A stretch of 64,000 bases of DNA. It comes from Escherichia coli. Lineage in GTDB: Bacteria; Pseudomonadota; Gammaproteobacteria; Enterobacterales; Enterobacteriaceae. The stretch lies in NCBI RefSeq assembly GCF_045037415.1, contig NZ_CP173440.1. The stretch is one strand, 5' to 3'. Of this stretch, positions 20,064-20,492 are shown one piece after another (the first letter of the stretch is position 1; each line of letters starts with the position of its first letter). The notes beneath the pieces were generated by a model. The model saw only the letters and a list, made by a program, of their open reading frames with translations. It searched no databases and was not told where the DNA came from. Both the position numbers and the translations under genes were made by a program.

Positions 20064-20492
20064 TTTCGTATCCCGACATAGCTCAGTGATTAACAGCAAC
20101 TATGTTGCATTAACCCACAAATTAACGCAACCTTGTTGCATTAAAAGCGTCACTAGGGAGTGCCTGAATATGTTAAGGGAAAGCATGGAAATGTTATTAA
20201 ATGGTAAAGATAATCTTTGCCATTTAAATACGTCTCACGCTAAGGCATACAATTTACAGTATGATATAACGTATAACTGATAACTAATAACTAACTACGA
20301 TTCTGTCAGATGGAGAAAATGTTTCAACTTTTGCTCGCCTTGAGAACGGTGTTAAGCGCCATCGCAAAAGACTGAACATATCTGGATAGACATTATCAAA
20401 TGAAAAACAAAAGGTTACACACCCCCCTCCTGCCAGCGGAATGACAAAGAACATGGTGGGATAGCGAATACAGACGGAAGAGGTAATATAAA

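Follow-up and report, generated by a model that had tools for sequence, protein, structure and literature searches.

The locus described here lies in a 64,000-nt stretch of plasmid DNA, hereafter the window. Over bases 15700-27600, it matches large K. pneumoniae plasmids of the IncFIB/IncHI1B virulence or hybrid kind, NZ_CP072809 among them, at 100% identity. A query with the island contained in it matched 694 PLSDB plasmid records, nearly all of them from Klebsiella, and by sequence the window comes from a pLVPK-like virulence plasmid of K. pneumoniae. Pfam hits and the annotated genes of NZ_CP072809, which is identical, show a zinc-starvation island. Its minus strand carries a hemB paralogue (15789-16811), a dihydroorotase-like gene (16875-18221), an M14 peptidase gene (18218-19069) and a gene for a truncated ThrRS-like protein of 333 aa (19062-20063). 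Next comes a DUF1460/AmiA-like amidase gene on the plus strand (20493-21317); between it and the minus-strand gene of a COG0523 (CobW-type) GTPase (24372-25571; Pfam cobW and CobW_C) lie, in window order, genes for a PTPS-like protein, a gamma carbonic anhydrase, FolE2 and a DksA paralogue. Divergently from COG0523, the plus strand encodes a divergent Fur-family regulator of 150 aa (25669-26121; WP_000211298.1; Pfam FUR, 2.5e-10), followed by a cysS paralogue (26203-27585), an oxidoreductase gene and the gene of a FeoB-like protein. A second Fur-family gene, encoding 166 aa (32520-33020, plus strand), is divergent from zigA-hisI on the minus strand. This pLVPK cluster has already been termed Zur-regulated by Haas et al. 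2009 (PMC2770081).

Part of the island is present twice. A duplication of ∼1.35 kb links 24348-25700 with 62642-64000, at 98% identity over the 300 nt measured, and includes a second COG0523 gene (62666-63865, minus strand) as well as the start of a second regulator copy, which runs from 63963 onward and is cut off by the window end. The NZ_CP072809 annotation has this second copy as a hypothetical protein of 128 aa, with genes for a c-type lysozyme inhibitor and for peptide deformylase coming after it. Between a methyltransferase gene and the second COG0523 copy, we also noted a perfect 24-bp tandem repeat at 62400-62560, which would read as MEIWKYGN repeats on one strand and as FPYFHISI repeats on the other.

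Upstream of the ThrRS-like gene, TGTTGCATTAA occurs exactly at 20103-20113 and again at 20134-20144, with the inverted partner TTAACGCAAC at 20122-20131. A first, sequence-only reading of this DNA had described the leader as two direct copies plus an inverted partner, with related copies elsewhere in the window. All of the strings it quoted are present where it placed them, as are the related copies at 25598-25620 and 63892-63914, but the layout is a different one: the repeated words are halves of the 23-bp palindrome TTAAyGCAAC-N3-GTTGCrTTAA, and the leader holds two complete palindromes in tandem. The proximal one (TAACAGCAACTATGTTGCATTAA; 20091-20113) matches 17 of the 20 half-site positions and spans -28 to -50 from the ThrRS-like ATG, while the distal one (TTAACGCAACCTTGTTGCATTAA; 20122-20144) matches 19 of 20 and spans -59 to -81 from that ATG (20063), the centres of the two being 31 bp apart. 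A single palindrome (TTAATGCAATCAAGTTGCAATAA; 25598-25620; 18/20) lies between COG0523 and the 150-aa regulator gene, at -27 to -49 from the COG0523 ATG (25571) and -49 to -71 from that of the regulator (25669), and its duplicate at 63892-63914 likewise scores 18/20. All four sites are intergenic, 27-81 nt upstream of start codons.

Whether the motif exceeds background, a check proposed along with that first reading, depends on what is counted. As an 11-mer with up to two mismatches it matches background, with 34 occurrences against 28 expected and 15 of 100 shuffles reaching 34. The palindrome was therefore taken as the unit instead. Searched as TTAATGCAAC-N3-GTTGCATTAA, it gave the four sites, each matching at least 17 of the 20 half-site positions, where dinucleotide shuffles of the window predict 0.01, a comparison that is partly circular because the consensus was derived from those same four sites. 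The independent test is provided by loci found through the regulator. Using a profile of its relatives, we retrieved 24 genomic loci, 22 of which are not near-identical to the window; these come from Enterobacterales (Klebsiella, Superficieibacter, Tatumella, Shimwellia, Erwinia and one contig labelled Martelella alba), from Methylocucumis and from Burkholderiales (Paraburkholderia, Burkholderia, Polynucleobacter, Brachymonas and several MAGs). Over the 22 loci, the relatives are 30-97% identical to the 150-aa regulator (30-43% in Burkholderiales). The 294 kb that they cover contain 34 palindrome sites, compared to 0.32 in block shuffles, and one Burkholderia site is the perfect TTAATGCAACATTGTTGCATTAA. 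While the unenriched 11-mer would suit a chance repeat or low-complexity AT-rich promoter sequence, we give that reading practically no weight: it is refuted by the ∼100-fold enrichment of the palindrome both in the window and in the independent loci, and the site stands out as a conserved footprint as well. The motif is real, not a product of chance, and looks functional.

Among the flanking open reading frames that were scanned are those of COG0523, ZnuA, HisI, the regulator itself and ThrRS paralogues of full length; a few more encode ArsR-type, SDR or SET-domain proteins or gave no Pfam hit. The site logo of the 22 loci reads tTAwyGCAAC-nnn-GTTGCrwTAa, with A3, G6, A9 and their mirror positions invariant; note that the selection threshold inflates conservation of the core in this logo, with A3/T21 lying outside the core criterion. 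In Enterobacterales, Polynucleobacter and Brachymonas, the sites flank the regulator gene directly. This positioning bears on the idea that an unrelated factor encoded elsewhere binds the sites, their co-occurrence with a Fur-family gene merely reflecting a shared zinc-island context. In several Paraburkholderia loci, the sites are indeed not immediately upstream of the regulator gene, and the assignment of a binding protein is drawn here from sequence. On the other hand, no regulatory gene other than that of the 150-aa regulator is shared by all 22 loci, although that commonality is built in because the loci were fetched by this gene, and the same box has been assigned to Zur in the literature on Desulfovibrio and Cupriavidus. 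Taken together with the direct flanking, we regard an unrelated factor as improbable. As an observation on the Paraburkholderia loci (L014-L019), the region upstream of the regulator gene contains, in place of a GCAAC box, a conserved GACGATGTATCATT/GATGTATGATTTCGCTATC block ∼60-100 nt upstream. By its sequence, this block may be the Burkholderia GATAT-type Zur box, which would point to cross-regulation of two Zur types.

At the ThrRS-like promoter, both operators have counterparts in other genomes. The distal block recurs, conserved, ahead of the thrS paralogues of Tatumella, locus L007 and two Erwinia, and the proximal 23-mer recurs identically in Tatumella (locus L006, 3380-3402). Similarly, the ThrRS paralogues of 654-675 aa in Tatumella, L007 and Erwinia are preceded by the same tandem pair, with 31-35 bp spacing. 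We infer that the minus-strand genes from 20063 down to 15789 (ThrRS-like, M14 peptidase, dihydroorotase-like and hemB paralogue), where adjacent gene ends overlap, form one operon, the presumed target of the tandem sites. The ThrRS-like protein itself aligns to residues 5-84 and 386-653 of a 654-aa Tatumella thrS paralogue, with residues ∼85-395 missing; the gene is thus, by this alignment, an in-frame deletion derivative. The gap would take out the editing domain together with the catalytic core's N-terminal half, and the product is unlikely to be an active synthetase despite its RefSeq name, threonine--tRNA ligase. Candidate -35/-10 elements of this promoter are weak in silico. In the Erwinia thrS paralogues, TTGATA and TATCTT, separated by 17 nt, bracket the distal operator, whereas the Klebsiella equivalents are weak. 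A sigma-54 promoter (TGGCAC-N5-TTGCA) was also considered and rejected on inspection, as the dinucleotides 12 nt upstream of the two TTGCA copies are AG and CG rather than GG.

Given that the repeats may sit in the 5′ leader of a thrS-like gene, and that each palindrome could form a 10-bp stem, one might read them as RNA hairpins, that is, as an attenuator or a ThrRS-binding operator mimic. We consider this very improbable. Bases 19900-20600 gave no Rfam match at E values up to 1, and complementarity at the variable palindrome positions (2/22, 4/20, 5/19, 10/14 and 11/13) was no higher than independence predicts. From this lack of compensatory pairing and of an Rfam match, the palindrome is read as a protein-binding site and not as a hairpin. 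In addition, it is found at divergent promoters and ahead of unrelated genes, COG0523, znuA and hisI among them.

The single operator at 25598-25620 is the most conserved block in an alignment of the COG0523/regulator intergenic region. A consensus scan predicts a COG0523 promoter with TTGAAT (25644-25639) and TATTAT (25622-25617) separated by a 16-nt spacer, the -10 element of which is overlapped by the operator; the -35 block is conserved only in those loci that have a divergent COG0523 gene. For the 150-aa regulator, the -35/-10 candidates are weak in silico. We presume the COG0523 gene (24372-25571) to be a target of this operator, and the regulator is presumably autoregulated.

What kind of protein is the 150-aa regulator? 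It scores 41 bits against Pfam PF01475 (Fur), above the gathering cutoff of 23.1 (E 2.5e-10), yet reaches only 31.6 bits against NCBIfam NF008646, the equivalog model of E. coli-type Zur, whose cutoff is 167. Its matches in the PDB are PerR (1e-6) and E. coli Zur (EcZur 4MTD, 1.2e-3). For the 166-aa protein, by comparison, EcZur 4MTD is the best solved relative (9.3e-19) and the NCBIfam Zur model gives 5.6e-24, placing it with the E. coli Zur type. A reference point for the 150-aa protein came from a metagenome contig that carries the exact published Rmet_0128 and Rmet_0125 sites and encodes a Zur of 169 aa and, after it, a His-rich COG0523 protein; its assignment as Cupriavidus-type rests on the exact site matches plus gene order. 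The Zur of this contig shares 30% identity with the plasmid regulator (E 2e-15) and matches the family profile with an hhalign probability of 99.8% (E 1.6e-27), compared to a partial match at E 8e-4 with the 166-aa canonical Zur-like protein. In a rough NJ tree, built without bootstrap, the 150-aa regulator, Desulfovibrionales proteins and the Cupriavidus-type Zur stand together, with EcZur and the 166-aa protein apart from them. By its sequence relatives, the 150-aa regulator belongs to the divergent clade of C. metallidurans-type Zur and not to the E. coli Zur type. The recognition helix of this clade, (D/N)RVT(L/V)YR(I/V)L, is nearly invariant, compared to KPxTVYRxLD in canonical Zur. Within the regulator family, only the Cys4 site (C97, C100, C141 and C144) is invariant, H42 being nearly so, and the His-rich stretch of Cupriavidus-type Zur is absent from the plasmid protein. 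Going by conservation, H42, E96, D98 and H101 are candidates for its sensing site. A search of plasmid proteins for relatives outside the Klebsiella lineage returned only Klebsiella, Escherichia, Enterobacter and Pantoea.

The window also contains the other, canonical operator class. Allowing up to four mismatches to AATGTTATAWTATAACATT, we found eight gamma-type boxes in the window, where 0.13 are expected. They occur at the dksA paralogue (dksA2; 24330) and the oxidoreductase gene (27620), and a canonical box at 32393-32411, between hisI-zigA and the 166-aa gene, equals the pLVPK LV196 site of Haas 2009. Strong boxes precede two ABC-transporter clusters (36536-36554, before the cluster at ∼36.5-42.8 kb; 57543-57566, before that at 58.0-60.8 kb), which from sequence suggests plasmid-borne uptake of zinc or of a metallophore. 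The former cluster encodes two ABC ATPases, an MFS protein, a binding protein of SBP_bac_5 type and a permease; the latter encodes an ABC ATPase, a binding protein and a FecCD-type permease. A region at 60927-60954, originally listed as another copy of the repeated motif, belongs to this class instead: only its GTTGCATTAT half matches, and the whole fits AATGTTATAWTATAACATT with four mismatches, as the degenerate box AATGTTGCATTATATCATA at 60928-60946. An open reading frame ∼180 nt downstream of this box (61130-61552, plus strand) resembles, as judged by eye, only the C-terminal part of a COG0523 protein and is therefore probably a gene remnant; it is absent from the PLSDB gene table.

Side by side, the two classes look related in design. 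Both are 23-bp palindromes in the same register, and each half shares AATG at positions 3-6 and A at position 9. They also share their role and the island, but positions 7, 8 and 10 differ consistently, reading CA.C in the GCAAC class and TT.T in the gamma-type class, such that the core is TGCAAC/GTTGCA here compared to TGTTAT/ATAACA in the gamma-proteobacterial box GAAATGTTATAWTATAACATTTC of the EcZur (4MTD) type. When we scanned for the gamma-type core, TGTTAT-(A/T)3-ATAACA within GAAATGTTATAWTATAACATTTC, with up to six mismatches, none of the four GCAAC-class sites appeared. Given the shared half-site positions, it is conceivable that the host Zur or the second Zur of the plasmid cross-binds. 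They also lend some appeal, in an island full of gamma-type boxes, to the view that a canonical Zur, be it encoded by the K. pneumoniae chromosome or the 166-aa protein of the plasmid, binds the palindromes as variant boxes, with the 150-aa protein serving in another role.

Relatives of the 166-aa regulator (51-64% identity) speak to this alternative. We found them in five loci, all of which also encode the 150-aa regulator in the same gene order; the five thus test the placement of the two classes and are not a regulator-free control. In these diverged islands, the GCAAC box is confined to the region that separates COG0523 from the 150-aa gene, with gamma-type boxes at the dksA, oxidoreductase, hisI and transporter promoters and the classes never swapping. 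The split is therefore old and maintained rather than a product of recent pLVPK mosaicism. This fixed placement, the consistent differences at positions 7, 8 and 10, and the fact that the GCAAC class tracks the 150-aa clade into Burkholderiales and Cupriavidus-type loci all count against binding by canonical Zur as the main explanation, which we consider unlikely, though less so than an unrelated factor. The initial suggestion, either a second class of operator or a variant form of the Zur site, is supported on both counts, with the two classes keeping to different promoters in the window. Its Zur part in particular is borne out by the GCAAC class following the 150-aa family across Enterobacterales, Methylocucumis and Burkholderiales, and by its identity with the published beta-proteobacterial/Desulfovibrio box.

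These published boxes were compared with the plasmid sites over the core ATGCAAC-N3-GTTGCAT, which is represented by AACGCAAC-CTT-GTTGCATT at 20122-20144, AATGCAAT-CAA-GTTGCAAT at 25598-25620 and ACAGCAAC-TAT-GTTGCATT at 20091-20113. In Desulfovibrio, the ZUR_D site ATGCAACnnnGTTGCAT has been predicted upstream of znuABC-zur and assigned to a Fur-family protein with only weak similarity to the known Zur, Fur and PerR proteins (Rodionov et al. 2004, PMC545781). Its 17-bp core palindrome ATGCAACnnnGTTGCAT is identical to that found here, and the family profile of the plasmid regulator matches 135-aa Desulfovibrionales proteins; the differences are a single predicted site, located upstream of znuABC-zur, and a shorter regulator. 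Haas 2009 (Additional file 5, PMC2770081) lists predicted boxes of the GCAAC class in Methylobacillus, where it is in tandem, in Ralstonia and in C. metallidurans. The dksA2-yciC-COG0523 locus of Methylobacillus flagellatus has two tandem boxes (-73 and -35), one of them aAAATGCAACATTGTTGCATTat, as does the ThrRS-like leader, but with a spacing of 38 bp rather than 31 bp and with other downstream genes.

The closest parallel is C. metallidurans, in which the GCAAC-class targets are zur-COG0523, yciC-X-omr and yciC-folE2-cysS2-queD2-cam-pyrC2 (PMC2770081). As summarized in a review (PMC6103462), Butof et al. 2017 tested binding of Cupriavidus Zur to its promoter regions and verified four boxes; papers from the Cupriavidus field state that the cobW1 paralogue operon, owing to its double Zur site, is reserved for extreme starvation (PMC10882993; PMC11340326). 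The C. metallidurans Zur (FurC, Rmet_0128) belongs to the same divergent regulator clade, its sites have the core TGCAAC-N3-(G/A)TTGCA, and they lie upstream of zur, of COG0523 and of the zinc-enzyme paralogue operon (yciC-folE2-cysS2-queD2-cam-pyrC2), the last with a double site. The GCAAC-class locations in the window are alike, namely, COG0523, the Fur-family gene with the cysS paralogue, and the ThrRS-like/dihydroorotase-like/hemB operon. In contrast to C. metallidurans, the plasmid system resides in a gamma-proteobacterial plasmid or island, has TTAA..TTAA flanks, is read from sequence alone, lacks the HSHFHC His-rich stretch in its regulator, and shares its surroundings with gamma-type boxes and a second, canonical Zur-like gene.

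Thus, the GCAAC operator class is already known, and the regulator, to go by its sequence relationships, is a member of the cognate clade. What appears to be undescribed, within a limited literature search, is the presence of this class and its targets on a Klebsiella virulence plasmid and in Enterobacterales islands, and its coexistence with a canonical Zur circuit. For pLVPK, Additional file 5 of Haas 2009 (PMC2770081), the one survey in that search to cover this plasmid, gives two gamma-type Zur sites, both among the eight boxes above, and none of the GCAAC class, which would leave the promoters of the ThrRS-like operon, COG0523 and the cysS paralogue without an assigned operator.

Our favored explanation, which we hold to be probable, is that the motif is the operator of a second Zur circuit with the 150-aa protein as cognate repressor. 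By analogy with the systems above, we infer the identity of the binding protein, its dependence on zinc, the occlusion of promoters and a graded response. In this scheme, a zinc-loaded dimer of the 150-aa protein would bind TTAAyGCAAC-N3-GTTGCrTTAA and block RNA polymerase at three promoters: that of COG0523, that of the regulator's own gene and the cysS paralogue, and, via the tandem sites, that of the ThrRS-like/M14/dihydroorotase-like/hemB operon. Upon zinc starvation, the repressor would leave the DNA and the genes would be derepressed. The tandem pair would confer tighter repression than a single site, as reported for Cupriavidus cobW1.

Such an assignment of promoters to a second plasmid-borne Zur of another clade yields a testable wiring diagram, and it predicts two or three Zur-type repressors per cell with separate operator classes. 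If true, it would mean that Fur-family operator specificity accompanies the regulator gene in horizontal transfer. Withholding zinc is a major defence of the host, and the island rides on K. pneumoniae virulence plasmids. One may speculate further, albeit tentatively and as something we rather doubt, that in the Enterobacterales island, its copy on hypervirulence plasmids included, a Burkholderiales/Desulfovibrio-type Zur with its own operator forms a self-contained second zinc circuit, insulated from both the host Zur and the other Zur of the island, in which three sensors with different set-points would stage the response and the tandem-site operon would come last. The conservation of the operator split in diverged islands fits selection for two separate channels.

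Two further sequence features deserve mention. Between the carbonic anhydrase and PTPS-like genes, TTAATAATACGGTGTTATGTTAA at 22287-22309 scores 14/20 on the palindrome without having the GCAAC core, and its counterpart in K. pneumoniae ATCC 13883 reaches 15/20. In the ThrRS-like intergenic region, four ATAAC direct repeats with an exact 7-bp period (gatATAACgtATAACtgATAACtaATAACta) occupy 20266-20291, just downstream of a predicted minus-strand promoter (20327-20300); missed by the palindromic scan, they resemble iterated gamma-type Zur half-sites.
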